A DNA stretch of 64,000 bases, from the IMG/VR virus record IMGVR_UViG_3300036863_000181, positions 1,951 to 65,950 of that record; one strand, 5' to 3'. This document shows, one piece after another, positions 1 through 64,000 of the stretch; the first letter of the stretch is position 1, and each line of letters starts with the position of its first letter. Position numbers and translations under genes: made by a program. Source of the DNA: a virus. Its lineage: Duplodnaviria > Caudoviricetes. The notes below the pieces were generated by a model. That model ran no database searches. It saw only the letters and a list, made by a program, of their open reading frames with translations, and was not told where the DNA came from.

Positions 1-124
1 GAACAAGCTCACTGGCAGCAAATAGCATGCATGCCCGTTGCATCGTTGCAAAATGTTCCGGATTAAAAAAGTTGAATTGTTCTGTTGGCGATGATTGCCT
101 GACTACTGCTTTATCTTCTGACAT
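1..124 (-). CDS. RecT/Bet-like single-strand annealing protein, N-terminus only (runs off window)
   Basis: Manual translation MSEDKAVVRQSSPTEQFNFFNPEHFATMQRACMLFAASELV; resembles RecT-family N-termini and follows the Rad50-like ATPase. Confidence 0.5.
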   Translation of the reverse strand, partial: MSEDKAVVRQSSPTEQFNFFNPEHFATMQRACMLFAASELV

Positions 125-153
125 AAAAAATTTTTAAATATTAATGAATAAGG

Positions 154-2193
154 TTAAGCCACTGCCTCCATTGCCGACTGTACTCTGAGCTTTTTGGCAC
201 CTGGAAAAACCACCAGGCGAATTACCTGGGCATCAATTGGCAGAAGTTTGATCACGCTCTCTGCATTGTCAATGAATACCGGCGCCTGGACCTTATGATA
301 TTCCTGAAGTACACGGATGATATCTAAACCTGCATTGATCCTTGCAGCATTGTTGGCATCTGCGTATGGAACGCCATCAATCAAAGTCAGGCAGGTAGGA
401 ACTTCGCCGCCATTTATCTGAGTTTCGAACATTTTAAATTTTACATATTTGAACATGGAATTAACCCGGGTTTCCAGCTCATCCATCTTCGCTTTTTCAA
501 ACCTGAGGATCGTGAATTCAATTGCTTCGATGTCCGATATCTGCTGAGCAAATTCCTTTTCCTGTCGATCCAGCTCTTCAATACGTTCTTCCTGTTGCTT
601 GCGCAGATCCTTTGTCGCCAGCTGCTTTTTCAGGACATCGATTTCAGCAGTGATCGCAGTTTTCTTTTCCTTCAGTTCAGTTGTAAGTTTGGTAGACGGT
701 TTATCCATATGATCGATCTCCACCTGGATTGTAGCCATCTTGGTTTTAAGCTCATTGATCTTTTCATTGGTAGCAATGGCCGTTGATATCTGAGAAGCTT
801 CGCTGTCATTGAGTAGAGAATGCGTTTGTTCCAACTGAGCAATGCTATTGGTAAGTGCAGCAATCTTGTTTTGATCATCGTCCGTAGTCCCCAATTCAGC
901 AAGTTTTGTTTTCAGGTCAATGATCTTAATTTTAATATTTGAACCATTGGTATTAATGTCATTTAACCTGGTTGTCTTCGCTGAATTGAAAGTCTTTTCT
1001 TTGGCCGCTTTGCTATCGTCAAAATTCTTTTGTAGCGTAGTACGGCGATTGTCTATAGTATCCGCTGGCAAATGTTGTTTGCAGGTAGGACAAATGCTTT
1101 CATTTTCATCGAAAGTAAATTCGTCTGTGAACTCAAATACCCGAGAGTTTTCCTTATGCCATTCTGTGCGAAGGGCTGTTGCCTGATTTTCAAGCGATTC
1201 AATTTCTCCTTTGATCCTGTTCAGTTGATTGGCCCGGCTACTGGTTTCATCCTGCAACGTTCGGAGGTCGGATTTCTTTTGCTGAATAAAAAGTTCCCGG
1301 TTCTGCCTGGCTGTATTGATCTCTTTCTGCAAATCAAAAGTGATCTGATTAATTTCAGTATGCCAGCCATGGACTTTATTAATCTTTTCAGCAACCAGTT
1401 TATTATTGTCCCTTGCGGCCTGCGCCTCATTTTCAATACCAGTTTCTACAGTAAGCAATTCGGCCTGTTTTGCAGTTAGTGCCTTTTCAAAAACCGAATA
1501 TTCAATTTCTTCAGGGAAAGCACGCTTAGCCTCCTGAATACGAGTGGGAATTTGCTCAATCTGATCCTTTAACTTTTTCTTACGTGCGGATTGCAAAGTT
1601 TTATATTCGGCGAATGTCTTTCCTGAAATATCTTTCAGCAGCTTTTCAAAATCAGTATCGCCTTCAGCAACTTCAGTATCACTAATATTTCCGGCGATCG
1701 ATTCCAGTACTTTGCGACGCTCCTGCCAGTTCAGAGAATTGAAATAGGCAGTGTTTGTAATCAACTTAAAAAGTGTTTCATCAACAAGACCCGATATCTT
1801 TCCATGGTATTCTTTCTGCTGCATCGGTACGTCATTCCAGTAATATTCGGTTTCATGGCCAGTCATTTCTGATTCGGACTTACCTCGCTGCTTTGTCCAT
1901 TTTTCCCGGTACACGCGGCGAATAACAATTTCTGAACCATCAACATCTAATACAGCCATTACCTCATGATCAAGCTTATGCATTGGCCGGTTCTTACTGT
2001 CAAGTGTCTTTATCTCAAAATCTTTACGGTCCGTGGAGTCCTTACCAAAAAGCAGCCATAAGAAAGCATCAAAAACAGTTGTCTTTCCTGTAGCATTTTC
2101 ACCAAGAATATCTGTGACCGGGTTAAAATCTATTATCAGATTGCTGATGCCCTTGAAGTTGATAAGAGTCATTGCCTTTAACTGAATATTCAT
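154..2193 (-). CDS. Rad50/SbcC-like AAA ATPase (phage recombination ATPase)
   Basis: Walker A GENATGKTT, long coiled coil with central CPTC zinc hook, Walker B VFIDNAES; start moved to MNIQLK (ATG at 2193). Confidence 0.85.
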   Translation of the reverse strand: MNIQLKAMTLINFKGISNLIIDFNPVTDILGENATGKTTVFDAFLWLLFGKDSTDRKDFEIKTLDSKNRPMHKLDHEVMAVLDVDGSEIVIRRVYREKWTKQRGKSESEMTGHETEYYWNDVPMQQKEYHGKISGLVDETLFKLITNTAYFNSLNWQERRKVLESIAGNISDTEVAEGDTDFEKLLKDISGKTFAEYKTLQSARKKKLKDQIEQIPTRIQEAKRAFPEEIEYSVFEKALTAKQAELLTVETGIENEAQAARDNNKLVAEKINKVHGWHTEINQITFDLQKEINTARQNRELFIQQKKSDLRTLQDETSSRANQLNRIKGEIESLENQATALRTEWHKENSRVFEFTDEFTFDENESICPTCKQHLPADTIDNRRTTLQKNFDDSKAAKEKTFNSAKTTRLNDINTNGSNIKIKIIDLKTKLAELGTTDDDQNKIAALTNSIAQLEQTHSLLNDSEASQISTAIATNEKINELKTKMATIQVEIDHMDKPSTKLTTELKEKKTAITAEIDVLKKQLATKDLRKQQEERIEELDRQEKEFAQQISDIEAIEFTILRFEKAKMDELETRVNSMFKYVKFKMFETQINGGEVPTCLTLIDGVPYADANNAARINAGLDIIRVLQEYHKVQAPVFIDNAESVIKLLPIDAQVIRLVVFPGAKKLRVQSAMEAVA

Positions 2194-5640: not shown

Positions 5641-5831
5641 CAGGGCCACCAGCGGGGACAAAAAAGCCGTTTTTTGCCGTTTTTGATTAAAATTAAATTA
5701 TTGCCATTCAATGTCATACGATACCAAAAAAGCTGAAATCGGAGTTCGAATCTCCTCTTCCGCACAGCTGAAACCCGCTACCACAGCGGGTTTCGATGTT
5801 AACAGATATATCGGGGACAAACTCAGGGACA
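5641..5831 (+). other. Putative attP: tRNA 3' fragment core flanked by arm-type repeats
   Basis: GGAG-TTCGAAT-CTCC-TCTTCCGCA (5741-5764, T-arm plus acceptor strand); 10-bp hairpin 5770-5794; CRGGG(A/C)CA pairs at 5641/5653 and 5812/5824, each 12 bp apart. Confidence 0.75.
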
Positions 5832-6985
5832 TGAAAAATTATAAGAATATAGAGCTTAAGACCTCGGGCAAAAAATGGTTTGTCAGCTTCTACTTTCTTA
5901 TCCCGGTAAAGCTACGCCCCCTTTATAAGAATAAAATATGGCAGCGTTTTAAGATGTATAAGGACATAAACCGGATAAAGACAATGGAATATGCCTATGA
6001 CCTTAAGGCAGCCGTCACCCTGGCTTTACAGGAAGGATACAACCCGTTTAAATATGTAGAACCTGAACCCGAGGAGCCCTTGCCAAAAGTCTGGACCATT
6101 CAGCAGGGCTTATTTTATTTTCTTCAGGTGTGCCGGGAGAAAGGACTTGAGCAGTCAAGTGTGGATAAATATAAATATTCAATTAATAAACTACTGAGCT
6201 GGGCCAGATCTATGGGCCTGGTTCACGCGGATATAAATATCCTGACTTCAAAACATATTCAGTCCTGTTTGTCGGAAGGAATTTCCAGCGGCTGGTCCAA
6301 TCGTAATTATAACAATATAAAATCTTTCCTTTCTACCTGTTTCATATTCCTGATCAGTAAAAAGATCATGGAGGTAAACCCCTGCGAGGGAATAGAGAAG
6401 AAAAGAACGCTGACTAAAAAACACAAAGCCTATAATAAGAGGAACCTGGAACTGATCATTTCGAAATTAAAAGAACATGATCCTTATATCTATTTCGTGA
6501 GCCGGATAATTTATTACCTCTGTATTCGAAGCAATAAAGAGTTGAAAAATTTAAAGATAAAACACATTGATCCTGAGCGAATGCAGGTGTGGGTAATGGC
6601 CGAAAATGCAAAAACTGACAGAGACAGGACCGTTCCCATGTGCGAAGAAATGTTACGAATCTTTGAAGAGCAGGGATTATTTAAATGCAATCCCGAACAT
6701 TATGTAGTTACCGGGAAAAGTTGTCCGGGGCCAAATCGATTTGGTACAAATTTTTTGTCCAAACGATTCGGTAAAGTAAGAGACGCGGCCGGCATTAGTG
6801 CAGACAGCACGCTATACGCTTTCAAACATACCCGTGTAATTCATTTAAAGCTGGATGGAGCACCGGATCCTGATATCATGGCACTTACTGGTCATACTTC
6901 TTTTCAGGCATATAGTGATTACCTGCGCGACCTGGGCATGGACGTAAATCCCAAAGAGATTAATAAGTATACAAGGACGATGTAG
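5831..6985 (+). CDS. int: Tyrosine integrase
   Basis: IRS...KHTR...GH...Y catalytic residues; probable start MKNYKN at 5831. Confidence 0.92.
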   Translation: MKNYKNIELKTSGKKWFVSFYFLIPVKLRPLYKNKIWQRFKMYKDINRIKTMEYAYDLKAAVTLALQEGYNPFKYVEPEPEEPLPKVWTIQQGLFYFLQVCREKGLEQSSVDKYKYSINKLLSWARSMGLVHADINILTSKHIQSCLSEGISSGWSNRNYNNIKSFLSTCFIFLISKKIMEVNPCEGIEKKRTLTKKHKAYNKRNLELIISKLKEHDPYIYFVSRIIYYLCIRSNKELKNLKIKHIDPERMQVWVMAENAKTDRDRTVPMCEEMLRIFEEQGLFKCNPEHYVVTGKSCPGPNRFGTNFLSKRFGKVRDAAGISADSTLYAFKHTRVIHLKLDGAPDPDIMALTGHTSFQAYSDYLRDLGMDVNPKEINKYTRTM

Positions 6986-20926: not shown

Positions 20927-22288
20927 TTATATTCTAATTAGTGCGTATATGCCGGTGTTTTTTGGACGCGTTTCTGTTCCTGTATTATTATCGGTAGTAA
21001 CAGGACTCATCGGAATGGGTTCATTGCTATCAGATCCTCCGACAAATCTTCCCTGACCTGCCTGAGTGGACGAGGTTTTATTAGCTGGTACCGTTAGGTC
21101 ATGAACGTGCGGTTTAACATCATCGGCCTCAAAACTTCCGGGCAGTCTGACACTATCAACTGCTTTTCTGAATCCATGTGTAAAAAGTGTGGGTATCCTG
21201 AAAGTGGTTGTTCCATTGCCTGTTGTATATTTCCCTCTGTTAATAAAATTACTGCCCGATACATCATTGTAAGTACTATCTGCAATAACCAGTCCCGCTT
21301 CCAGTGTCTGAACATAAGCCCATAATCTGGGGTAATCAGCTCTGCTGAGTGCGGTGCCGCTGGCAAAAATCGTGTTGATCTGCTGTTTTGAATACTGATC
21401 GATAACCTCTCCCACCATTCTTATTGTATCACTGGACATAAGAACATTCCATTTGCTATTTGATTTTATAAGGATCAGCTGCTCACTTTGCCCAAGGACC
21501 AGATTGACAGTCGGCGTTACCTGATTTGTATACAACTTATATTCAATCGCATCTGATCCCGCACATTGAATTATGGCATTTATATGACTTCCCCCTGCGG
21601 AAAGAAAGAAAAGCGTTTTGTTATTTCCGACCAGCGAAAGAGCAGGCAGAATTATAGTTATGCTTGATCCTGCGCCCTGGATCAAAAACCCCTTACCTAC
21701 ATCTGCATTAGTTAATGTCCGGCTGGCTGTAATAATCTCAGTGGTACTGATCAATGCCGGTACAGTTGGTAACGGGATTTGTGCAACCAACGGTAAAAAG
21801 TGAAGTATAAATTTTTCTTCAACCTCAAATTGGTCGCCTGCCACTAACAAATGAAAGCCATTTACATCTTTAGCATAATTTACGCCCGGCTCCATAGTCC
21901 CAAATCCGCGTCGTTCTAAATCATAGGCCCATCCCGTTAAATCATTCGGAGAGTCAGCAGTATATGATGTTGCCCCGGCATTAAAATTAACAGAAGTACC
22001 AGCCGTCAGATAAAGATCATCCCTAACAGTTATGCTCTCATTAGTAGGCTCGAATGAAAAGCTGGACCTGACTGTTCCTGCTGGGGAAGTTGTTGCCGAT
22101 TCAAATAACTTGAAATCGTACAAAATAGGATCAATCCCTGTAAAAATAATATGTATGGTACTCGCGTAAGGCTTTGGTGGAGCAATGACCTGCACCGGAA
22201 CACCTGGTGCACTGTGATCATAAATCGCAGCTACCAGGTTATTGGCCGGGTTTGAAAGTGTCGCCTGTATAAATACATTCCAGTTCAT
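20927..22288 (-). CDS. Tail fibre protein with collar domain
   Basis: ASGTALSRADYPRLW, GNGTTTFRIP and terminal ETRPKN motifs. Confidence 0.8.
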   Translation of the reverse strand: MNWNVFIQATLSNPANNLVAAIYDHSAPGVPVQVIAPPKPYASTIHIIFTGIDPILYDFKLFESATTSPAGTVRSSFSFEPTNESITVRDDLYLTAGTSVNFNAGATSYTADSPNDLTGWAYDLERRGFGTMEPGVNYAKDVNGFHLLVAGDQFEVEEKFILHFLPLVAQIPLPTVPALISTTEIITASRTLTNADVGKGFLIQGAGSSITIILPALSLVGNNKTLFFLSAGGSHINAIIQCAGSDAIEYKLYTNQVTPTVNLVLGQSEQLILIKSNSKWNVLMSSDTIRMVGEVIDQYSKQQINTIFASGTALSRADYPRLWAYVQTLEAGLVIADSTYNDVSGSNFINRGKYTTGNGTTTFRIPTLFTHGFRKAVDSVRLPGSFEADDVKPHVHDLTVPANKTSSTQAGQGRFVGGSDSNEPIPMSPVTTDNNTGTETRPKNTGIYALIRI

Positions 22289-40467: not shown

Positions 40468-41829
40468 TTAATAATTATTCTTCGATGGCGCCGGCTTTCC
40501 GGTAGATACTTTTCCTGATCCATACCCCTTGTAATCCATTATAACGTAACGGGCAGGATCTATTAAGTGATTGAATTCATCAATCGGCTCATTGGTATAA
40601 TTCCCGTTCTTATCCTGGGCATACACGTAATTATATATCTCATGCCATAGATCGGCACTTTCTTCAACCGCATGCAGGACCATGCTGTCCATTAACCCCA
40701 ACCCATACTCAACGCTCCCCTGCCCTTTCACACATGGAATAATGTAAAATCCATTAGCCAGGCGCGGATGCTTTACAAACACATCGTCCGGTAATTCCGT
40801 GGTCCGGTACCCGACCTTCAATTTATCAATGGACAATGGATCTGCGCTGTCCGCTACAATTTTGTCAGTGCTACCAAAACCCAGCGTACAATACATTTTT
40901 GCAATATCCAATGTGCTTTTGGGTAAGTAGTTCAATTGCCTGATGTAGCAATTGTTTTTATCAAACTTCAGGCCGACAAGACCTGCAGGTGAAGCGGTTC
41001 CAAAATCCTGACCATATATTTCTTTAAACGGTAGAGCGAGGTAATCAGCAAGTTTAATGGCCTTGACCTTGGTTAATATCTGGCCTTTGCGACCAGTAGA
41101 GGCGTAACCCTGAATGGCAGTAAGGAAGTGATGCAGGTTGTACATATGATGATTAGGATCACCATATCCTTTATACCGATCTATAATGTGCTGTGGCAGG
41201 AAAGGATTATCCTGGTACCCAGTCTGAATGCAAACAACTCCTGGTATATTCTTAGGACTGAGTTTAAAATATCCATTATGCTCCGTGGTTTCTAAAATGA
41301 AATATCTCTTAATTAAGAAATGACCAATATCAGGTACATTCATCATAACAATAACCAGGCAGCCCTCTTTTCTTAGCCCATCAATAAATGTATCAAACTC
41401 TTCTTCACTTCTAAGATCCTCGCACTCTTCAATAGCAGCAATATCGATATCTGAGACCCCTTTCATGTTCGCTTTCTTTTCTAATGCACTTGCCCTGAAC
41501 CCTTTAGTATATACCAACTCTTTTCCTGTCTTCCTCTCAGAAATGCCGCTTTTTAAACGCTCAAAATATCTATCAAGCTGATTATTTGAATTGGCTGTAT
41601 CATATCGCAAAAGAATTTCATTGAGGATGGTGTCCTTTATTAAACTCTTTTCATCACGCAGGATAACACATCTCTTTTTTTTGATCGTAGCCTGGAAAGC
41701 TATAAACTTACTGACTTCATATGTTTTAGCACCGCCACGACCACCAATACAGATTATAGTATTTGTGTCAGTAGGAAGATTATAAAGAATTTTAAACTGC
41801 TCAATTGGAAGTTCTACCTCTATTTCCAC
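40468..41829 (-). CDS. terL: Terminase large subunit
   Basis: GGRGGAKT Walker A, IEECE Walker B, GQDFG and DEFNHLIDPARY nuclease motifs. Confidence 0.92.
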   Translation of the reverse strand: MEIEVELPIEQFKILYNLPTDTNTIICIGGRGGAKTYEVSKFIAFQATIKKKRCVILRDEKSLIKDTILNEILLRYDTANSNNQLDRYFERLKSGISERKTGKELVYTKGFRASALEKKANMKGVSDIDIAAIEECEDLRSEEEFDTFIDGLRKEGCLVIVMMNVPDIGHFLIKRYFILETTEHNGYFKLSPKNIPGVVCIQTGYQDNPFLPQHIIDRYKGYGDPNHHMYNLHHFLTAIQGYASTGRKGQILTKVKAIKLADYLALPFKEIYGQDFGTASPAGLVGLKFDKNNCYIRQLNYLPKSTLDIAKMYCTLGFGSTDKIVADSADPLSIDKLKVGYRTTELPDDVFVKHPRLANGFYIIPCVKGQGSVEYGLGLMDSMVLHAVEESADLWHEIYNYVYAQDKNGNYTNEPIDEFNHLIDPARYVIMDYKGYGSGKVSTGKPAPSKNNY

Positions 41830-43906: not shown

Positions 43907-45550
43907 TCAGTTAAAAAGATTATCAGATGCCTTTACCATTCCCCTTTCTGTTATATTCACAAGTTCCTTTGCCACTAACCTTTGCAAAAAGGCATCACGG
44001 CTCGATCTCTTGTATTCAGTACGATTGGTGATTTCTTCCCGGTCAACAGATTTTGGATATGCATTCATCAGTATTTCCAGAATTGGCTTCTCCCCACCAG
44101 GTAAATTGTTAAGCCAATATTCTCGTAGTGCTTTCCCTTTTGGCAGTGGCTTATAAGAGTCGCCTAATGTTTGGATAGCAAATCCTGTTGCTGTTATTCG
44201 ATCATCACTTATTGTGATAAGATCCTTGGCTGAAAGGCGCTGAATGAAAGCGTCTCTGCTGGAGCGTTTATAGCCAGTCAATACAGTGAGCTGAATCCGC
44301 GTTACTCCTTTCTGATGTTGGGCAATTGCCGATAATACTGTTATTTCTCCTTTGCCCAATGTGCCGTTTGAGGCCTTCAATTCACCTTGGTTTTTGAATG
44401 CAGGAATTTTCTGTATTTTCTCTTTTGTTGGAATGACAATGTTGTGATCAGGATATGGACGCCCGTGATAATTAATTTCTTCTGTTTGATATCCACCAGG
44501 TAACCGCAGGTCAGCAGGTTTTACGCCTTCTTCCAAAAACACTTTTGCAGCGTCAGCCGCCAGTTGGAAACCATGCACAACTTCAAGCAATGCCCGGTAT
44601 TGTGATTGCTGTTCCTCATTATGCTTTTTAAGAGCAGCAATCTCATCCTTATACTCTTTCACTAGGATATCAGGCTTAGAGCAGCTCTCCGCTTTTGGCT
44701 CGGTTTTTATCAATTCATCATTCAATTTTGCAAGAATGGATATCAATTTACCGGTTGGTGCCTTAGCCGTAATATTCATATTGGTTCCGGCCTGTGGCAT
44801 TTTACTCTGTGGGGTTTTGATCTTAACCTCATGAACCTCATGAGGTTCTATACTGGTACCAAAGGCATAGAAATAACCTGGTTTCAGATCGCGTAATTTC
44901 ATTCTGTCATTCATCTTACTGAAACCCAATTCTTTTGCCGCACGATCCATGTCAATATCCAGGTAAGTGCGACCTATGAATTTATTATTGCACTCAGCTG
45001 CCACATCTTTGTGAAGCTTACTAATTCGCTGGGTAATAGGAATACCACAGTAACCACGTTTACGGCCTCGGCTGAGAAGATCTTTCACCGCTGGCCCGCT
45101 TTCATATTTATCCTGTTCGCCCGCCAACTTGTGACATTCTTCCAGGAATACGAGTAACGCTGTCCAGTACTGTTGGGGCAATTGCATAAGACTTTCCAGG
45201 AAAAGGCGTGCGAACCTTATACGCTCTCCCATATCCATGTCACTGATATCGAGCACAGCACTAAGCTGGTTTTCTATAATAAATTTGGGTAACTGTTTTG
45301 CCAACTCCATTGATATGGGAACATCCGCATGCTGGCCGCCAATGACAATTATATCGCCATGCACTTCTTTAAGCGTGTAGTATTCACCGTCAATATCCAT
45401 GACCACCCAGGGTATTTTACCATAAGACTCTTCCATGATCACCCGGGCGATGGCAGATTTACCGCCGCCGCTATTTGCCTGGATAAGTAGCCGGCTTTTA
45501 ACCAGGTCCGGTAGATTAATTGTTGTTCCGATGTTGATTGTCTGATCCAT
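43907..45550 (-). CDS. HerA/DUF87-like ATPase with two C-terminal winged-helix repeats
   Basis: ANSGGGKS, VFLEECH, RGRKRG, TQR; duplicated YKRSSRDAFxQRL. Confidence 0.8.
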   Translation of the reverse strand: MDQTINIGTTINLPDLVKSRLLIQANSGGGKSAIARVIMEESYGKIPWVVMDIDGEYYTLKEVHGDIIVIGGQHADVPISMELAKQLPKFIIENQLSAVLDISDMDMGERIRFARLFLESLMQLPQQYWTALLVFLEECHKLAGEQDKYESGPAVKDLLSRGRKRGYCGIPITQRISKLHKDVAAECNNKFIGRTYLDIDMDRAAKELGFSKMNDRMKLRDLKPGYFYAFGTSIEPHEVHEVKIKTPQSKMPQAGTNMNITAKAPTGKLISILAKLNDELIKTEPKAESCSKPDILVKEYKDEIAALKKHNEEQQSQYRALLEVVHGFQLAADAAKVFLEEGVKPADLRLPGGYQTEEINYHGRPYPDHNIVIPTKEKIQKIPAFKNQGELKASNGTLGKGEITVLSAIAQHQKGVTRIQLTVLTGYKRSSRDAFIQRLSAKDLITISDDRITATGFAIQTLGDSYKPLPKGKALREYWLNNLPGGEKPILEILMNAYPKSVDREEITNRTEYKRSSRDAFLQRLVAKELVNITERGMVKASDNLFN

Positions 45551-53373: not shown

Positions 53374-53600
53374 TTTTGCTGCGTTGTAAGCAACTCTTCC
53401 AAATTAAGTTGCAGGTTTTTCTTATGAGCCTTCAACATCTTAGCCAGCCGCTCGTATACCGCGATCTCATGCTTTGCTACTGTATCTTTCTTCTTTCCGA
53501 TAAAGACCATGGATGGATAATTACGCTTCATCCAGGACAAGCGATCATCAACCGTTTTTATCAGGTCAGCATAGGTAATATGATACGGGTCACGGGCCAT
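53370..53600 (-). CDS. Hypothetical protein
   Basis: ORF track; coupled overlap. Confidence 0.6.
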   Translation of the reverse strand: MARDPYHITYADLIKTVDDRLSWMKRNYPSMVFIGKKKDTVAKHEIAVYERLAKMLKAHKKNLQLNLEELLTTQQK

Positions 53601-55843
53601 TAACTTCGCTTGAATGTTACGTTTGTAAGATGCCGGCCATTGTTCATGATCGAGAACAGACCTTTATCGTTCTCTACAATCCGCATGGTTTCGATCTTGC
53701 CAAAGAATTTTATATTTCCCCCAAGATCAACAACCCATCCTGATTTCTTTGATCCATCTTCATAGGTATATGGTCGCATTACCCGGCCAACAATCTGATA
53801 ATAAAGGGCCAACGACATAGTAGACCGGGCTATGAGCACGCATTCCAGTTCAGGGTAATCAAAACCTGTAGTGAGCACACCAACGTTGATCACGCATTTT
53901 ATCTTGCCACACTTGAACTTTTTGAGAATATCATCCCGAACATCTGCAGGTGTTTCACCAGTCAGAACAACTGAACCTGGGACTTTCTTTGCCGTAGAAT
54001 TAGCCTCTTCAATCAGCGAACAAAAGACCAGCAGATTATTGCGTTTGGCCAGTAACCGGTTCGCATACTTTGCAGTCAGCGCCGGCATATCAATGGACCG
54101 GTAATAACTGCGGAGACTACTTTCTGTAAAGTCTGTACCCGTTGAATTCATTTCCAACATCTGCCTGTTGATCGTGTCAAAGCTGAAATATTCGAGCGGC
54201 GCCAGGTGACCGGCATTGAACAGCACATCATTCTGAACATAGTAAAGAACCTTATTGAATATCTTAGGTCGTGTACGGGTCAGGAATTTGAGCATGGCAC
54301 CATCAGCATCAGATGTTAAACGGTAAGGCGTAGCAGTAAGTCCCAATACTTTTGCATGCCCCAGTGTTTTGATAAATGAATGATACATGCCTTCACGCGC
54401 GTTCACCAAATGGCAATTGTGAACAATAATGCCGGCAGTAGGTTGTTTTTTGCTTTTATCATATTTGCCAGGACTGACAGTATATGTTTCATTGTCCTCT
54501 ACCTGAATATTATACACAGGCTCCTTTCCTGCAGACTCTTTGCCAATTAAAACACATGCTCCCCTTTGATTGAAATCAGAATTCCATTTATAGCTCCCGG
54601 CAAGGTGTTTAACTGAATCAATGATTTTATAAGACATTGATGGATGCACATAAGGAGCAATCATCCTGCACAGATTTTCTACGGCAACCTTTTTGAACTT
54701 AATATAATAGTGAGTTCTTTTGCTGATTTTGCTAATGCCAGAACAGACCCTGCCTGGCACGCCATATGAAGTTAGCATTGCGCGAAGCTTTTCTGTAAGT
54801 TCCTTTGATGTAGCCGTTGAATAAAGGGAGCCCCAATTCTGAAGCTTAGCCAAATGACCGTCATCCATCCATGCAATAGCCAACATCCGCAGGTTAAGGT
54901 TTTCGATTATACTGCCAATAGCACATTTATCATCTTCCATAAAAACAACCTTGGAAGAAAACGCATATGCGTTCTTGCCTGCAAAGCCATTTTTTAAAAC
55001 CAACCGTGGCTTTTGCTTCAGCATGTCGGCCTTCCACATAAGATATTCCTTCTGATCTGTTCCCTGGATAAACCTAAACCGATTAATATTCTTTATCAAC
55101 CTTGTTTTATCCAATGAACCGTCACCCAGGAGGCTGCCTAAGAGCAGACTTCTTTGGTCGCTGCTTGGAATAGGCGCATAGGTGCCGGTTGGGCACGATG
55201 ACAAAATGCAATCTCCAATTTGCAGGTCATGGGCAGTTTTCCAGCCATTACTGGTTAAGAATGGATGGCCAGATGTGCAGCAGACAGATACATTTTTGCT
55301 AAAATGTAGCCTCAGTATTTCCTTTTCTCCGGTGCATTTTCCGGTGATAACACGCTTCAACTCCATAGCATTCGTTTCCGAATTATAGCTCAACACCCGG
55401 GGAACTGATTTGCCGGCATTTATCAATTTCACCAGGTAACCTATTCTAAGCTTGCCTTTCTCTGTACTAATGAAGGTGTCATAAGGGAAGCACTCATCGA
55501 CAATAATGTTCTGAAACTCCTTGAACAAATGCGGCTTCTTTGCTACACTACCAATGGTACAAAAGGTGATGTCATCGATATACTTCATGCCGGCTGAAGC
55601 ACTATATATGCCTGCACGGTAGCCGTAAGAAAGGAACTTGGCAAAGTTCTGTGCCAGTATTTCTTTCGAAGGTTGGAAAACCACCGTCTTTCCTTTCAGG
55701 TTCATGGCCGTATTGGCAATGACCACGCTCTTACCGCTTCCGGTTGGAAGGATCTCTATTCCATTTATCTTTTTCTTATTCTGGAAAAAGTCGATATTGG
55801 CGCTTATCGCATCTACCTGATATGGTCGCGGTGTGAAATTCAT
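53600..55843 (-). CDS. SF2 DExH helicase containing an intein
   Basis: PTGSGKS, DE|CH split by intein, TATP, TTGFD, QIVGRVMR. Confidence 0.9.
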   Translation of the reverse strand: MNFTPRPYQVDAISANIDFFQNKKKINGIEILPTGSGKSVVIANTAMNLKGKTVVFQPSKEILAQNFAKFLSYGYRAGIYSASAGMKYIDDITFCTIGSVAKKPHLFKEFQNIIVDECFPYDTFISTEKGKLRIGYLVKLINAGKSVPRVLSYNSETNAMELKRVITGKCTGEKEILRLHFSKNVSVCCTSGHPFLTSNGWKTAHDLQIGDCILSSCPTGTYAPIPSSDQRSLLLGSLLGDGSLDKTRLIKNINRFRFIQGTDQKEYLMWKADMLKQKPRLVLKNGFAGKNAYAFSSKVVFMEDDKCAIGSIIENLNLRMLAIAWMDDGHLAKLQNWGSLYSTATSKELTEKLRAMLTSYGVPGRVCSGISKISKRTHYYIKFKKVAVENLCRMIAPYVHPSMSYKIIDSVKHLAGSYKWNSDFNQRGACVLIGKESAGKEPVYNIQVEDNETYTVSPGKYDKSKKQPTAGIIVHNCHLVNAREGMYHSFIKTLGHAKVLGLTATPYRLTSDADGAMLKFLTRTRPKIFNKVLYYVQNDVLFNAGHLAPLEYFSFDTINRQMLEMNSTGTDFTESSLRSYYRSIDMPALTAKYANRLLAKRNNLLVFCSLIEEANSTAKKVPGSVVLTGETPADVRDDILKKFKCGKIKCVINVGVLTTGFDYPELECVLIARSTMSLALYYQIVGRVMRPYTYEDGSKKSGWVVDLGGNIKFFGKIETMRIVENDKGLFSIMNNGRHLTNVTFKRS
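54416..55492 (-). mobile_element. Intein (359 aa) with LAGLIDADG homing endonuclease
   Basis: Begins CFPYDT, block B TSGH, LLGSLLGDG and AWMDDG motifs, ends IIVHN followed by extein Cys. Confidence 0.9.
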
Positions 55844-56514: not shown

Positions 56515-57594
56515 TTATTTTGATTGATTAATAGGCATTTCGTTGTATTCCAAACCATCCAGATCGCGACCGGCTTTCTTTTTGCCTACGCGTACAATTG
56601 GTAAGGAATTATCGCCAGCAGTATTTTTAAAGCAATGCACTGTGCCATTTGTTGCTAAAAGGAAGGCAGGAGGATAACCCGAATTGCCTTTGCTGGTGTC
56701 GTATTCTTCCGATGCCAGTGGTGGCCTCCATTCACCCCATTGCTTAAAAAAGAAAGCAGTCCCGGCATCTTTACACTGATTGCGCAATGACCTCACCCAT
56801 TCAGGATGCATTGGCCTGGCGCCGGGCCCTGATTCGCCGCCGACAATTACCCAGTCAATATATCCGCTACCATCATTGCTGTCAGCAGGAAGTTGAAGCG
56901 GTCCCAATAAAGGTTCACATGAAAGGAAATGAACAGCAGCAGGAGTTTTTATTAAATCTTCAAATCGATCTTCCAGTGCTTTTTGATTCTCTACAGACAC
57001 TCCAACCCATACATTGGGCAGCGGATCATATTGCTCAAAAATTAGAGTAGAGTCTTTACTTCCATCATGGTCATAACTTTTATCCCAGAGCCAACCAGCC
57101 TTTTTTAAATGTGGCAAAAGCTGTTGGTCATTACCATGCATATAATCGAAATAAGGGGAGGCAAGGTCTTCAAAATCATCGCCCAGACCATTTTCATATT
57201 CCTCATAATACTGTAGCATTATATCAGGACGTTTGGTAAGAACCTGGAAAGTATGTTGCGGGCATAAAGCCATAATCAGGAATATCTTTTGTATAAACTC
57301 AAATGGTATTTCCTTATGAAAAAGATCGCTCATGCTGTCCACGAAATACACTGTTGGCTTTTTGTTCAGGAGAGGTTCTATTAACCGGCTTTCGATAAGG
57401 TTAATTTTATCATCCCAAACTATTTTACCATTGGCAAGCTTTTTGGTGAGCCCTTCATATTCTCGGGACATTGCCGGATTAAATGAAAGCCGGTAAGCCA
57501 TACGCGCTGCGTAACAATTAGTACAGCCTGGAGAGACTTCTGTACAGCCCAAAGTTGGGTTCCATGTCTTTTCGGTCCATTCGATTTTACTCAT
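56515..57594 (-). CDS. DUF5131 (phage Gp37/Gp68) family protein
   Basis: MSKIEWT..TWNP..GC...SPGC.NCYA, SMSDLFH, GGESG and FFFKQWG motifs. Confidence 0.9.
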   Translation of the reverse strand: MSKIEWTEKTWNPTLGCTEVSPGCTNCYAARMAYRLSFNPAMSREYEGLTKKLANGKIVWDDKINLIESRLIEPLLNKKPTVYFVDSMSDLFHKEIPFEFIQKIFLIMALCPQHTFQVLTKRPDIMLQYYEEYENGLGDDFEDLASPYFDYMHGNDQQLLPHLKKAGWLWDKSYDHDGSKDSTLIFEQYDPLPNVWVGVSVENQKALEDRFEDLIKTPAAVHFLSCEPLLGPLQLPADSNDGSGYIDWVIVGGESGPGARPMHPEWVRSLRNQCKDAGTAFFFKQWGEWRPPLASEEYDTSKGNSGYPPAFLLATNGTVHCFKNTAGDNSLPIVRVGKKKAGRDLDGLEYNEMPINQSK

Positions 57595-59417: not shown

Positions 59418-61953
59418 TTACCAGGTCAAATAATGTTGGTAGCTTTTTGTTATGTTCAGCTGCTTTACAATAAGCTGCTCCGTCCAAAAAATATTGATGA
59501 TTAAGTTCTATGCCTATACCATATCTGCCCTGAAGAATCGCCTCTACCGGGACGGTCATCAACCCTCCAAATGGATCAAGCACCCTATCACCGGGATTTG
59601 ACATCTGTTTAATAACCCGCTGCGCCAATTCTATCTGCATAGGGCACAAATGAAGTTCCTTACCTTTTGCATGTTGTGAACCATTAAGCGTTCGCATGCG
59701 AGTTATATCGGTCCATACCTCATCGGACCAGCTCTGTGGTTGCAGTAGCATGAAGGTTGTTGGAAGCTTACCCATGGCCATGAGTGTATCACCGATCTCA
59801 ACATGATACTCGAAATCATAAATACAGTTCAGCGAGTAATCACGGAAGAATTTGAATATTTGATTGTGATCCAGCTTCGCAATCTCTTCCGGCATCAAAG
59901 GCCTATTGCCAGATGCCCTGGTAAATCCATGAGCATCTACCTGCCATTTTGAAAGGGAGTAATCTTCTTTAGATTTTGTGACAGGAACATCTGCATAACC
60001 ATTTGACGGATCAGTAACTGGCTTGCGGAATAACAAAAGATATTCTGGCATACCCACTCCCATTTTGCTACCGTCTTTACATTGTTCAGTCCAACCTAAC
60101 CGATATGTTTGGTTATTCTCCCGCACTACATCAGTCACAATTGTTTTCATACCGATATAGGCGAACCCATGTTTAATGTAGTGATCCATTACATGCTTAT
60201 GGAATGGATATACTGTTTGAAAGCCGAGACCCGTCATTCCTCCAGGTACAATCCTGTCCTTTACATGAATGGCTGCAATCCTGCCAGGCATGAGCGATCG
60301 GTAAAGCTCAGGGGTGAGGTAATCCATTTGCCCAAAAAACTCATCGTTATTTTCGGAGTGACCAAAATCAGAATAATTTGGTGAGTATTCATACTGCGTA
60401 GAAAATGGAATGGAAGTAAGTATTAGCCCAACACTATTATCTTGTAAGTTCCGGCTTTCAATTACGGAATCATTATTGATAAGGTGATAGTTATTGCCGA
60501 CAATGGTTATTCGATCAACGCCAAAACCGCGCGTCAGGGCCTTCGCCATTTCTCCATGGCTTAAACCAAACTCTTTAATTAGGTCGGTCATTATTTTAAC
60601 TTTTTTATTGTGCTGTGACCATTTTCTTTCCAAATTTTTTCTTACCTGTCGCTCTGCTTCTGTGTAAATAAGATCAACCCGTACACGATTTTGTTGGAGA
60701 AAACGTTGCAAACGCATTACGCTTTGTATGAAGTCATTGAACTTAAAACCAATGCCTAGGTATATTGCCCAGGAACAGTATCGTTGCAAGTTGGTACCTG
60801 AACCGATCATTACAGGCTTACCGCCCAGTTCCGGAATTCGGCCATAAGAGAAATCGGCAATAATCTTTTCCCGTTCCTCTAAATCCATGGTACCATAAAC
60901 AGTTGCGCAATCAGGGAGCGCCTTTTCAATAGCATGCCTTTCCGCTTCGAGGTCATGCCAGATTATCCGGTGAGCAGAAGGATCTTCCTTCCGGAGTTCA
61001 AGCATCTTCGCTATTCGCGAAGGAAGGCTTTCACGTTTTTCCCTGGCAGCATCAACCAGGCCGACGGCCGTATTTTTGAATAACCTTTTTTGACCGTTCT
61101 TTTCAAAGCCGGCTGACGAGTGATCGCTCGGCAATTCGTGCCAGTGGATATCTAATTCGGGAAGAACATAACCTTCATCGTCTGAAGGATCACCGGTAAT
61201 ATCAGAAGGGAGGGAAATAAATAATGCCCATGAACTAACCCACATCCAAAATTCTTCTTCCTTGTGTTTATGCAAAGTGAGTTTGTCAGCCTGTGTACTA
61301 TCACGTTTGAAGAATCGGGTTTTAGCTTGGCTAACGTCCATTATCCCAAGAAAGTCGGCGTAAGCCAGCAGCTCAATATGATCATTGGGATCAGGCGTAG
61401 CAGTGGCTATAAAACGATATGGAACACACTGAGTACTGCGCCGGTTTCCATTGGGACCACCATCCCCTGTAAATAGCCGCATGAATTCGCGGAATGTTTT
61501 GCTACTTCCAAATCCACGTAGAACAGATGCCTCATCCAAAGATGCTGCCTGGAATAATCGCGGGTCCAGTTTAAGATCACGTACGGTTTCATAATTTGTA
61601 AGATAAATACCCGTTTCACCAGCTTCTTCAATTGAGCGAATGAATTTTGGTGCAGTATCCCAGCCAAGAACGTTTTTCGAATCGTTTATAAATTCCTGAC
61701 GCACACCCAGAGGACAGATGATCAATCCCCGGCCTCCCGTTTTTGTAAGAATAATGCGAAGTGTTTCAAGTTGACAAACGGTTTTATGAAGGCCAAAAGC
61801 GGCAAAACATGCTCTCCTGCCTCCTTCAACCATCCATTTTACCATCAGCTTATTGTGCGGTTTCAATGCAGGATTGACCTCTGAAATATTCAGGCTAAAA
61901 CCGGTTGAGCCGGCTATGCGTATTTTAGATTTTAAAAAGTCCTGGTATTCCAT
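59410..61953 (-). CDS. SNF2-like helicase domain fused to N4/N6 DNA methyltransferase
   Basis: GLHKT, DEAS, TATP; TSIPF catalytic motif; LDPFGG SAM-binding motif. Confidence 0.88.
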   Translation of the reverse strand: MEYQDFLKSKIRIAGSTGFSLNISEVNPALKPHNKLMVKWMVEGGRRACFAAFGLHKTVCQLETLRIILTKTGGRGLIICPLGVRQEFINDSKNVLGWDTAPKFIRSIEEAGETGIYLTNYETVRDLKLDPRLFQAASLDEASVLRGFGSSKTFREFMRLFTGDGGPNGNRRSTQCVPYRFIATATPDPNDHIELLAYADFLGIMDVSQAKTRFFKRDSTQADKLTLHKHKEEEFWMWVSSWALFISLPSDITGDPSDDEGYVLPELDIHWHELPSDHSSAGFEKNGQKRLFKNTAVGLVDAAREKRESLPSRIAKMLELRKEDPSAHRIIWHDLEAERHAIEKALPDCATVYGTMDLEEREKIIADFSYGRIPELGGKPVMIGSGTNLQRYCSWAIYLGIGFKFNDFIQSVMRLQRFLQQNRVRVDLIYTEAERQVRKNLERKWSQHNKKVKIMTDLIKEFGLSHGEMAKALTRGFGVDRITIVGNNYHLINNDSVIESRNLQDNSVGLILTSIPFSTQYEYSPNYSDFGHSENNDEFFGQMDYLTPELYRSLMPGRIAAIHVKDRIVPGGMTGLGFQTVYPFHKHVMDHYIKHGFAYIGMKTIVTDVVRENNQTYRLGWTEQCKDGSKMGVGMPEYLLLFRKPVTDPSNGYADVPVTKSKEDYSLSKWQVDAHGFTRASGNRPLMPEEIAKLDHNQIFKFFRDYSLNCIYDFEYHVEIGDTLMAMGKLPTTFMLLQPQSWSDEVWTDITRMRTLNGSQHAKGKELHLCPMQIELAQRVIKQMSNPGDRVLDPFGGLMTVPVEAILQGRYGIGIELNHQYFLDGAAYCKAAEHNKKLPTLFDLVNV

Positions 61954-62243
61954 TAGCTAAAAAGGTATTGATCGCTTTGTTTAATAATCGTCGTCTTAAA
62001 AGGAAAATCCGTTTTCGGTACCTGCTCTATCATTTCTCTCAGCACTTTTGAACCTGTCCATATAATTCGCTTCTCATCTTTGTATTCAAACCAAATTGTC
62101 AGTCTCTCCCCCGTATATTTTGATGGTTCAATTTTATAATCAAGAACCACTATTGCCTGATTCAGGATACGTTCGATTTTTATTTTGTCGCCAGTGAACT
62201 CTTTTTGGGACACGGCGATGTTGAAGTTTTTGAACTCTTTCAT
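61953..62243 (-). CDS. Small beta-rich protein overlapping the DGR RT 3' end (candidate accessory factor)
   Basis: 96-aa ORF; its stop overlaps the methylase start. Confidence 0.75.
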   Translation of the reverse strand: MKEFKNFNIAVSQKEFTGDKIKIERILNQAIVVLDYKIEPSKYTGERLTIWFEYKDEKRIIWTGSKVLREMIEQVPKTDFPFKTTIIKQSDQYLFS

Positions 62244-63192
62244 CTAATAAGGTTTTAAGTAAGGTTTTTGTATTAGCATGGCAGGCCCATCCATAATAGG
62301 ATGCTATGGACTTTCGATTTGGGCGGCGTGCCAGCATGCGACAGAAATTCTGTTTTATGCTTTTTCTGAGCTTTGTATAACCATGGTAATAAACGTAGCC
62401 AAGGAAATCAACGCCCCTGTTTTTGTTGATCGGGAATACCTGGTAATTGCCTTTCACCTGCAGGTTCAATTCTGAAGTGAGGTAATGACTTATCTGTTTA
62501 AGCAGAGTATGTAAATATTCTTTACTACCTGAGAATACCACGATATCATCAGCATAACGGAAGTAATGCTTTACCCGGAGGATTTCTTTAATCCAGTGAT
62601 CAAAATAAGTGAGGTAGAAATTGGCGAAGTACTGGCTTAGATAATTGCCGATTGGCAGACCTTCAGCACTATCAATTATTTCATCCATCAACCAAAGAAG
62701 ATCCGGGTCCTTTATCTTGCGGCGAAGTAATTTTTTCAGGATAGCGTGATCAACTGAGGGATAAAATTTTTTAATATCGATCTTCAGGCAAAACCGGGTT
62801 TCAGTTTCATTCCTTAAAGCTTTTTTAATGGCTTTATCGGCTGCATGAATTCCGCGACCTTTTATGCAGCTGTAGGTATCGGACGTAAATGTGGAAACAA
62901 AAATATTTTCCACCAGGTTCATTACCGCATGATGGACTATGCGATCAGGGAAATAAGGTAATCTGAAAACCAGCCTTTCTTTAGGCTCATAAATTTTAAA
63001 GGTGGTATAGGCCGAAGTTTTGTACGTCTTATCCAGCAGCATGCTGTTCAGTGCCTGCAGATTGAGATCACGGTTACGATCAAAGACCTTTATTCCGTAA
63101 TGGTGCTTCTTTCCCTTCCTGGCGATGGCGTCCGCCAGTTTAAGGTTTTCCACACTGCAAATCTGCTGATATAAATTTCCAAGCCTTTTCAT
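62140..63192 (-). CDS. DGR reverse transcriptase
   Basis: PKER, DRIVHH, DIKKFY, LPIGNYLSQ (DGR-type SQ motif), YADD, DFLGY; probable start MKRLGN at 63192. Confidence 0.95.
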   Translation of the reverse strand: MKRLGNLYQQICSVENLKLADAIARKGKKHHYGIKVFDRNRDLNLQALNSMLLDKTYKTSAYTTFKIYEPKERLVFRLPYFPDRIVHHAVMNLVENIFVSTFTSDTYSCIKGRGIHAADKAIKKALRNETETRFCLKIDIKKFYPSVDHAILKKLLRRKIKDPDLLWLMDEIIDSAEGLPIGNYLSQYFANFYLTYFDHWIKEILRVKHYFRYADDIVVFSGSKEYLHTLLKQISHYLTSELNLQVKGNYQVFPINKNRGVDFLGYVYYHGYTKLRKSIKQNFCRMLARRPNRKSIASYYGWACHANTKTLLKTLLDERVQKLQHRRVPKRVHWRQNKNRTYPESGNSGS

Positions 63193-63296
63193 GCCTTTGT
63201 TTAATGGGTCGCTTTCCACTATAGTACCAGCGCCCCAATTTTAAAAAGTCATTTTTTGCCAAGAGGCAAGGCCTGTCCCGCAAATCATTACTAACA

Positions 63297-63365
63297 ATTG
63301 CGCGAGCTGACGTTCGAATTCGTGTTATCGTAGTTCGAATCGTTGAACTGGAAACCTGCAGGCGA
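63297..63365 (-). repeat. DGR template repeat (TR), 69 nt, 19 adenines
   Basis: TCGCCTGCAGGTTTCCAGTTCAACGATTCGAACTACGATAACACGAATTCGAACGTCAGCTCGCGCAAT; differs from both VRs only at A. Confidence 0.95.
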
Positions 63366-63400
63366 ATGCCAACCCTTCCAGCGGGACACAACCTGTTATT

Positions 63401-63778
63401 TTACTGAATCATTAAATCCCTGTACAGATCAATGAGTTCCTTTCCTGCTTTGTCCGAAAGCGCCCGATTTACGTATGAAAGGCGCGAGCCGACGTACGAA
63501 CCCGCGTAATCGCAGTACGAACCGTTGAACCGGAAACCCGCAGGCGAACCGTCTCCTATTTCGAAATAAGGCATATACTTCCACTGATCATACTTGGTAT
63601 AATCATGGATATGGCCCTTATTCCAGTGATCGACGATCAGCATCAGTTTTGCTCCTGCTATTGCACCCTTCCTTTGTGCTGCAGGATATGCCGAGAATTT
63701 AGGGACCGCCTTATTATGATCAAGGCTCTTAGCCTTGCACGCCGCCCGATAATGTTTTTCCGAAAGTGATAGTTTCAT
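63401..63778 (-). CDS. DGR target protein 1 (125 aa)
   Basis: Contains VR1 encoding SPAGFRFNGSYCDYAGSYVGSRL. Confidence 0.92.
   Translation of the reverse strand: MKLSLSEKHYRAACKAKSLDHNKAVPKFSAYPAAQRKGAIAGAKLMLIVDHWNKGHIHDYTKYDQWKYMPYFEIGDGSPAGFRFNGSYCDYAGSYVGSRLSYVNRALSDKAGKELIDLYRDLMIQ
63479..63547 (-). repeat. DGR variable repeat VR1
   Basis: Ungapped 69-nt match to TR; 13 mismatches, all at TR adenines. Confidence 0.95.
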
Positions 63779-63780
63779 GA

Positions 63781-64000
63781 TTATGATTTTGTGTGTAATG
63801 CCTTATAATCCGCAAAGAAATATTTCACCATGTGCTGTACCCGGTCTTCCGATTTTAAAACAAAGCGCGAGCCGACGCTCGAACTCGAGTCATCGTAGCC
63901 CGAAGCGATGAACCGGAAACCCGCAGGCGAATTGTGATAAAACCAGGGAAACCATTTGTATTGGTCACTATCATCCCAGTTGGGAAAATTGGGATCATCA
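63781..64000 (-). CDS. DGR target protein 2 (5' end outside window; not in ORF track)
   Basis: Manual translation ...PNWDDSDQYKWFPWFYHNSPAGFRFIASGYDDSSSSVGSRFVLKSEDRVQHMVKYFFADYKALHTKS*; paralogous to target 1. Confidence 0.9.
   Translation of the reverse strand, partial: DDPNFPNWDDSDQYKWFPWFYHNSPAGFRFIASGYDDSSSSVGSRFVLKSEDRVQHMVKYFFADYKALHTKS
63862..63930 (-). repeat. DGR variable repeat VR2
   Basis: Ungapped 69-nt match to TR; 13 mismatches, all at TR adenines. Confidence 0.95.

Follow-up and report, generated by a model that had tools for sequence, protein, structure and literature searches.

Phage diversity-generating retroelements (DGRs) are understood almost solely as host-range devices on tail fibres; the cassette described here aims solely at small soluble proteins. 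In Bordetella phage BPP-1 (mtd-avd-TR-brt), a template repeat (TR) with AAC/AAT-rich codons and no attainable stop lies just upstream of a reverse transcriptase (RT) with GxxxSQ and YADD motifs, and is rewritten at adenines into a single variable repeat (VR) encoding the C-terminal C-type lectin (CLec) tip of a tail fibre. Non-structural DGR targets are not a new idea: in the passages of Benler et al. 2021 (PMC8008677) that deal with Quimbyvirus, a non-structural DGR target encoded among methyltransferases was read as a phage-host conflict protein, and we place a LoVEphage (MW660583.1) counterpart in the target family described below. The DGR studied here lies at one end of a 64,000-nt stretch of viral DNA (hereafter the window), bases 1951-65950 of the 65,950-nt virus record IMGVR_UViG_3300036863_000181, which is classed as linear by IMG/VR and 100% complete by CheckV. 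It is an active DGR of a temperate soil phage, and it rewrites two adjacent small paralogous genes. The best-supported reading, to which we give somewhat better than even chances, is that their products are non-structural, probably intracellular variable binders. Its parts are, in window coordinates:

63297..63365, minus strand: TR, non-coding, 69 nt with 19 adenines, 35 nt past the stop codon of target 1.
63479..63547, minus strand: VR1, 13 of 69 positions mismatched to the TR, all at TR adenines; encodes residues 78-100 of the 125 of target 1.
63862..63930, minus strand: VR2, likewise 13 of 69 mismatches, all at TR adenines; a second allele stands at the record start.
63401..63778, minus strand: short target (target 1, T_short), 125 aa, phrog_11581 at E 2.8e-7; it is without the first ~40 residues of the long form.
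63781..64000, minus strand: 3' 72 codons of the long target (target 2, T_long), phrog_11581 at E 3.9e-9; the whole gene (156 aa) continues at the record start (record 30..500).
62140..63192, minus strand: DGR RT, 350 aa from the ATG used by homologues; the open reading frame (ORF) is open from a GTG at 63219.
63187..63273, minus strand: structured spacer RNA between TR and RT start, probably Rfam RT-17 (RF03020).
61953..62243, minus strand: 96-aa basic protein (pI 9.1), phrog_19665, whose start overlaps the 3' end of the RT by 104 nt.
63752..64000, strand not applicable: assembly overlap, the same as the first 249 nt of the record bar 8 VR2 positions.

All 26 mismatches between the TR and its two VRs fell at TR adenines and none at other bases, a placement with a probability of 7e-10 per VR (hypergeometric). 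The original prediction, made from the sequence of the window, had located the TR and both VRs and counted these mismatches correctly. It had also stated that the fibre genes carry no VR-like peptide, and a scan of the whole record for TR-like stretches (at most 4 non-A mismatches) agreed, returning only the TR, VR1 and VR2 and no VR in fibre genes. Its figure of 4^19 variants per target stands as an upper bound for DNA; at the protein level, 12 codons per gene are variable, which gives ~10^10.7 protein variants. As in BPP-1, the TR codons were AAC/AAT-rich and no stop codon was reachable.

The first 249 nt of the record were identical to its last 249 nt (window 63752-64000) save at 8 positions, all of them TR-adenine sites of VR2. 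Since the end copies match except at these sites, the genome is circular or terminally redundant despite its linear class. That IMG/VR saw no repeat at the ends is probably due to the 8 VR2 mismatches in the terminal overlap, and variation made by a DGR can thus mask circularity in end-repeat checks. With every one of their 8 differences at a TR-A site within 249 nt (P = 2e-10), the end copies also mean that the sample held at least two VR2 alleles, which strengthens the case for activity. A Logan contig of run X1 crossed the end overlap internally and extended beyond the window end, and the VR2 allele of the record start was present in Logan contigs of both X1 and X2, soil metagenomes that were flagged as possible sources and hence are not independent. 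Contigs of run X3 (depth 2-5) carried the TR and its flanks without differences, their coverage excluding VR1 and VR2, and run X4 contributed 261 nt only; the allele comparison thus rests on Logan contigs, which carry no allele frequencies.

Variation of the same kind was found among relatives. We analysed 80 IMG/VR loci (2 loci, and another 78 distinct ones taken from the 80 best of 165 confirmed matches), in which 147 of 156 target-TR pairs were clean A-type under a scoring that favours cleanness. Non-A mismatches are penalized heavily in this scoring and set the segment ends, and the totals of 2084 A-site versus 40 non-A mismatches overstate purity. Three comparisons are unbiased: the phage's own TR and VRs, the VR2 end alleles, and column counts in close relatives. 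Across 7 related loci with RTs at least 80% identical, 30 of 37 VR A-sites varied versus 1 of 116 VR non-A sites; variation touched 1 of 79 columns in the TR and 70 of 1898 elsewhere. Another trio of relatives varied at 22 of 63 A-sites versus 1 of 2258 positions outside them; other clusters were alike, and one trio showed zero variation. It is very improbable that these repeats represent an inactive or decayed relic, or that the end difference is an assembly artefact. Such a relic is favoured by VR1, which was identical in all contigs compared (contigs, not reads), but the RT has an intact ORF that keeps its catalytic motifs, the TR retains its 19 adenines, 0 of 26 TR/VR mismatches lie at non-A sites, none of the end differences lies outside TR-A sites, and relatives vary at A-sites in the same way. 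One related cassette does look to be decaying, with a TR (L055:5737-5810) of only 11 adenines and 6 non-A mismatches in each VR.

The RT matched Pfam RVT_1 and phrog_1423 (1e-119) and was 47-55% identical to annotated RTs of crAss-like phages. Its intact ORF carried IGNYLSQ at residue 190 and YADD at residue 222, the motifs on which it had been recognized from the outset, and (I/L)GxxxSQ with YxDD is the hallmark of DGR RTs (PMC12386605). As in BPP-1, the spacer between TR and RT contains a structured RNA, RT-10 there and RT-17 here. Weinberg et al. 2017 (PMC5737381) placed RT-10 in the BPP-1 spacer and named only RT-10 as a DGR part, while speculating that other RT motifs serve DGRs. The spacer in the window matched RT-17 over the full model length (1-95; E 2.6e-5) with a score of 38.6 bits, just below the gathering score of 40.4. 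Above that score, RT-17 was found in 9 of 17 related loci, where it started 11-25 nt past the TR and ended at the RT start, and the spacer RNA here is probably a divergent member of RT-17. A sub-threshold match (32.9 bits) was present in crAss-like phage cr55_1, and RT-17 was not found in the loci of ANMV-1, vir525 or LoVEphage.

BPP-1 encodes Avd, whereas the Avd-like profile PF05635 matched nothing in the 65,950-nt record at E <= 1, and an ORF with a predicted oligonucleotide/oligosaccharide-binding (OB) fold follows the RT instead. Because Avd-less DGR lineages have been reported (Wu et al. 2018), the absence of Avd does not bar membership among DGRs. The accessory classes listed in that study are Avd, HRDC, MSL, CH1 and four weakly supported candidates. 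The AlphaFold2 (AF2) model of the 96-aa protein (pLDDT 89.9) resembled OB folds. The top row in VIA was a RuvB-like 2 domain (Z 6.8, rmsd 2.5, 67 aligned), followed by the single-stranded DNA-binding protein (SSB) Rim1 (6.2), SSB (6.0), further SSBs down to 5.4 and PriB (5.0), and most listed rows were OB folds. Foldseek gave no match for this model at E <= 1e-3, and no PADLOC model matched the protein. Homologues numbered 507 at E <= 1e-5, and the 120 listed were all annotated 'hypothetical protein' and had no Pfam domain.

Of the 80 related loci, 65 had a homologue of ~98 aa behind the RT, and in all 65 its start overlapped the end of the RT ORF, usually by 14-17 nt; among the 10 loci where an RT was present but no small-protein match, 3 break off right after the RT. 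Homologues also stood directly after the RT in ANMV-1 (37% identity, E 7e-9), where the neighbour is adtA, annotated as a DGR target and adjacent to capsid tail fibre genes, and in the Methanosarcinales virus vir525 (34% identity, E 8e-7), where a tail protein precedes the RT. These two loci differ from ours in their tail-type targets and in having neither a gene of the target family nor an RT-17 match. A figure legend on ANMV-1 in Paul et al. 2015 (PMC4372165) names an 'Avd' ORF, although which ORF is meant is not evident from that legend. Since homologues follow the RT in archaeal-virus DGRs with tail targets, the putative OB-fold gene goes with the RT and not with the target family, and we regard its product, as modelled, as a candidate DGR accessory factor. 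The ORF that follows the RT in cr55_1 was considered as a counterpart and rejected, as it had no similarity to the 96-aa protein.

The two targets were paralogous (33% identity over 80 aa, E 2e-8), and the short one was a 125-aa protein with no leader or transmembrane stretch and an internal VR, all as originally proposed. Target 2 had been taken for a truncated gene; it is cut only by the end of the window, and the complete gene runs on through the record start. The VR was followed by 25-26 coding residues (25 in target 1), which differs from the C-terminal position in BPP-1. A hydropathy scan of the targets found no 19-residue Kyte-Doolittle window above 0.66 and no transmembrane or leader-like stretch. 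The isoelectric point was 6.1 for the long and 9.4 for the short target, with a family median of ~5.4. Neither had a match in Pfam or NCBIfam, and phrog_11581, the family matched by both, has no assigned function.

Searching 1.84 billion representatives with phmmer gave 972 clusters at E <= 1e-3, of which 180 reached E <= 1e-10. Members were mostly ~155 aa, with about a dozen two-domain fusions of ~250-300 aa; in a search for longer relatives, 10 of 12 matches were long+short fusions and no fusion to a tail domain was found, although this search was weak. The pairing of a long (~155 aa) with a short (~125 aa) form, sometimes fused into ~300 aa, is ancient. Complex prediction for the long and short targets scored 0.37, versus 0.44 for a control in which chain 1 was replaced, and the recurrent ~300-aa fusions are the only hint that the two may act together. 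With target 2 as query, tblastn found no match in 50,697 phage records; the more central family member P0009 found LoVEphage, cr60_1 and Bacteroides phage BT-TP2 (PQ571279.1). Family genes also occurred as prophage genes in bacterial genomes, those of Chryseobacterium, Dyadobacter and Epilithonimonas included, with the best match in a Puia metagenome-assembled genome, and 19 of 22 such loci came from genera that we take to belong to Bacteroidota. In some short forms the helical N-terminal ~40 aa were swapped for a ~35-residue module ('..IxIPEGFxIDxFDxxTGEIKFKEKPK..'), including the following examples, among others:

L032:7908-8351: short form with the alternative N-terminal module.
L019:2002-2451: the same module.
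L045:6440-6889: the same module.

Two further members (P0280 and P0281) had N-terminal extensions of 180-270 aa without any family match.

The long target was modelled by AF2 from a 114-sequence alignment with a pLDDT of 95.4 and a pTM of 0.87. In this model, helices extend to residue 84 and are followed by a beta-hairpin (99-107/111-120), a loop and two C-terminal helices, so that the VR (residues 108-130) covers the hairpin's second strand plus the loop that comes next. Comparison with known folds, CLec folds included, yielded little. Foldseek against the PDB gave no match at E <= 1e-3, and VIA against 48,161 chains gave a best Z of 4.3 (rmsd 5.4, 108 aligned; a salivary protein) with no CLec among the 50 rows listed, unlike the lectin tip of BPP-1. 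A second look with VIA over the Foldseek matches reached Z <= 2.1, searches of BFVD and the ESM Atlas returned only uncharacterized phage proteins, a profile search of PDB sequences found nothing below E 0.2, and Pfam on the 114 members gave only 4 single chance-level matches. The family's VR end, '...VGSRL', resembles what we take to be the usual CLec end, 'GFRL/GFRC'. We do not read the blank searches as a new fold, because both Quimbyvirus targets are called CLec-domain proteins in the relevant passages of Benler et al. 2021 (PMC8008677), and because Roux et al. 2021 (PMC8144416) described VR domains as 'systematically' C-type lectin and expected unfamiliar ones to be new CLec variants.

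Cassette order was shared between the window and its relatives: long target, short target, TR, RT and the ~98-aa protein, with an RT in 75 of the 80 loci. Among these 75, the targets ran long-short in 40, short-short in 21, long-short-short in 3 and short-short-short in 3, and the rest were short-long-short (2), long alone (3), long-long (1), long-long-short (1) or without a target (1). At five loci (L029, L030, L049, L053 and L079), the family genes had no RT near them within flanks of up to 8 kb and may represent orphan or remote targets; a TR-like remnant persists at L053.

For the 34 of 39 RT clusters whose representatives had long enough flanks, we scanned the two nearest ORFs on each side of the cassette, 135 ORFs in total. 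The families encountered were PD-(D/E)XK nucleases (5), DUF3164 (4), DUF2800 (3), DUF4494 (3), PcfK, C5 methylase, HNH, FtsK, RecT, SSB, PolA, D12 and N6/N4 methylases, ParB, S24 peptidase (repressor), DnaA_C and pol III beta. No virion family was found among the 25 families listed of the 46 matched.

The phage's own gene map tells the same. Reading along the minus strand, the order was SbcC-like, RecT and metallo-beta-lactamase (MBL) hydrolase genes (Pfam/PHROG profile matches), long target, short target, TR, RT and OB-fold ORF, then a SNF2-type helicase fused to an N6/N4 methyltransferase, a C5 methyltransferase, a 359-aa ORF, a helicase with a LAGLIDADG insert, a replication initiator and DnaB. 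Terminase, portal, protease, capsid and tail genes came last in this order, far from the DGR. The fibre gene at 20927..22288 is ~41 kb from the DGR on the linear stretch, in line with the 'more than 40 kb' first proposed, but only ~23 kb around the circle. We favour the non-virion reading because of this gene map, the flanks of relatives, the lack of a leader or transmembrane stretch, and fusions that join only long to short forms. The original claim that the targets are not virion proteins thus holds in so far as they are small, paralogous and leaderless and sit in a recombination/replication block, as in relatives, although the LoVEphage arrangement would also suit a virion-linked role.

LoVEphage encodes a 194-aa member of the family (QVQ57199.1; hhalign 99.7%, E 2.6e-25, full length), whose VR is written by the phage's TR and whose gene lies off the virion region, among cytosine and adenine methyltransferases. 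From its matching layout, LoVEphage would be of the Quimbyvirus type. This position also argues for non-virion targets, and the same was inferred for Quimbyvirus by Benler et al. 2021. LoVEphage differs from the phage studied here in several respects. Its RT is split over three frames and ~15 kb from the family member, whereas here the targets are directly upstream of the TR and RT, with an OB-fold gene and RT-17 RNA. QVQ57199.1 has a ~27-aa insertion before the VR core. The single LoVEphage TR also writes a tail collar fibre, whereas only two tandem family members are written here; likeness between the LoVEphage family member and fibre protein was confined to the VR peptide (62% identical).

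This shared TR supports an alternative in which the targets are virion-associated receptor-binding modules, i.e., free-standing variable tips whose conserved helices attach them to the tail or capsid, encoded outside the structural operon and switching host range as in BPP-1. We consider this unlikely, though to be taken seriously. The interchangeable N-terminal modules (the helical ~40 aa, the L032:7908-8351 type and the P0280/P0281 extensions) could serve for docking, and the hosts are, on our assignment, mostly Bacteroidota, whose variable surfaces favour tail diversification. In Macadangdang et al. (bioRxiv 2024.11.15.621889), small prophage DGR targets that have no other domain are guessed to play a part in tail fibres. 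Against these points stand the flank scan, the position of the cassette between the RecT/MBL and helicase-methyltransferase genes, the lack of tail-domain fusions in the weak search, and the lack of a CLec or fibre-like fold match.

The phage is called temperate because of an integrase at 5711..6985. This feature, together with the prophage setting of family members in bacterial genomes, would suit another alternative, in which the pair forms a prophage-encoded defence or exclusion sensor of the lysogen, an 'antibody' generator, and not a counter-defence, whose variable surfaces would recognize proteins of superinfecting phages and block these phages. A DGR-based immunity hypothesis is put forward in a passage of PMC10053308. 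The 359-aa ORF that follows the C5 methyltransferase (56515-57594, minus strand) matched the PADLOC candidate-defence models PDC-M41B/PDC-M30B at 2e-81, which also counts for this alternative, and phrog_2045 (function unknown). We nonetheless find it improbable, since no effector domain is attached to the targets or conserved next to them, no PADLOC model matches them, and the genes that accompany the cassette, for recombination and replication, would usually belong to the lytic cycle.

Other observations were made in the neighbourhood. The MBL-fold hydrolase (record 525-1262, minus strand; phrog_392 at 7e-71) lies directly upstream of the long target and had a sub-threshold Pfam match to the anti-Pycsar protein Apyc1 (E 0.013, 15.4 bits, cut-off 50); an MBL homologue adjoins the cassette in related loci L028 and L079 too. 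In the 747-aa helicase (53600-55843, minus strand), residues 228-407 matched the LAGLIDADG homing endonuclease family, which suggests an intein or inserted endonuclease. Two ORFs matched the terminase large subunit, at 43907-45550 (minus strand; phrog_2666, 6e-15) and 40468-41829 (minus strand; phrog_2, 7e-20).

Several points weigh against intracellular binders written by an active DGR with an OB-fold partner. Known phage DGR biology is receptor binding, and a shared extracellular ligand would also fit the single LoVEphage TR, which serves a tail collar fibre as well as a family member. No PADLOC model matched the targets, which gives them no link to known defence systems. The methyltransferases noted beside the DGR at the start are present in this genome but are not a general neighbourhood, as few of the 80 related loci matched the phage's own methyltransferases nearby. 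VR1 had a single allele across all contigs compared, and three TR-A sites were G in all three VR alleles, so that fewer positions may vary in practice. The OB-fold assignment, with Z of 5-6.8, is under the tool's safe level and leans on the uniformity of the matches, and no small-protein homologue turned up in 7 loci whose sequence continues far enough past the RT to hold one.

Weighing these points, we still favour non-structural, probably intracellular binders. Copies of the TR, made with errors at adenines, replace a 69-nt segment in the two adjacent paralogous genes. This rewriting reaches up to 12 codons per gene, which in the model form the second hairpin strand and the next loop, on a helical scaffold. 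Three conserved parts make up the engine, namely the RT, the RT-17-type RNA between TR and RT, and the small basic protein with its predicted OB fold, which would take over the nucleic-acid handling done by Avd in the Bordetella phage. Both targets, soluble and non-virion, would be made together with recombination and replication genes and would supply the phage population, inside the infected or lysogenic cell, with a standing library of binding proteins, with variable proteins of host defences or of competing phages as the most likely partners. It is possible to go further, and postulate that the long and short targets form a VH/VL-like two-chain, non-CLec intracellular counter-defence library and, separately, that an Avd-independent engine of RT, OB-fold protein and RT-17-type RNA is common to Bacteroidota phages and archaeal viruses; this extension seems rather unlikely to us.

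Beyond the Quimbyvirus precedent, three features appear to be new here: a putative OB-fold gene in common with archaeal-virus DGRs, the assignment of RT-17 to the TR-RT spacer, and the long/short pairing of targets with its recurrent fusions. The phage is a good entry point to such systems, with a complete genome, two VR alleles on record and targets modelled at very high confidence. A 125-156-aa scaffold that would tolerate ~10^10 variants may interest protein engineers, and the predicted OB-fold gene and RT-17 RNA would provide testable parts for an Avd-independent homing mechanism. Cassettes of this type are common, with hundreds of protein clusters, mostly in Bacteroidota phages, and a hypervariable intracellular binder, if true, would be a new kind of weapon in the conflict between phages and their hosts.

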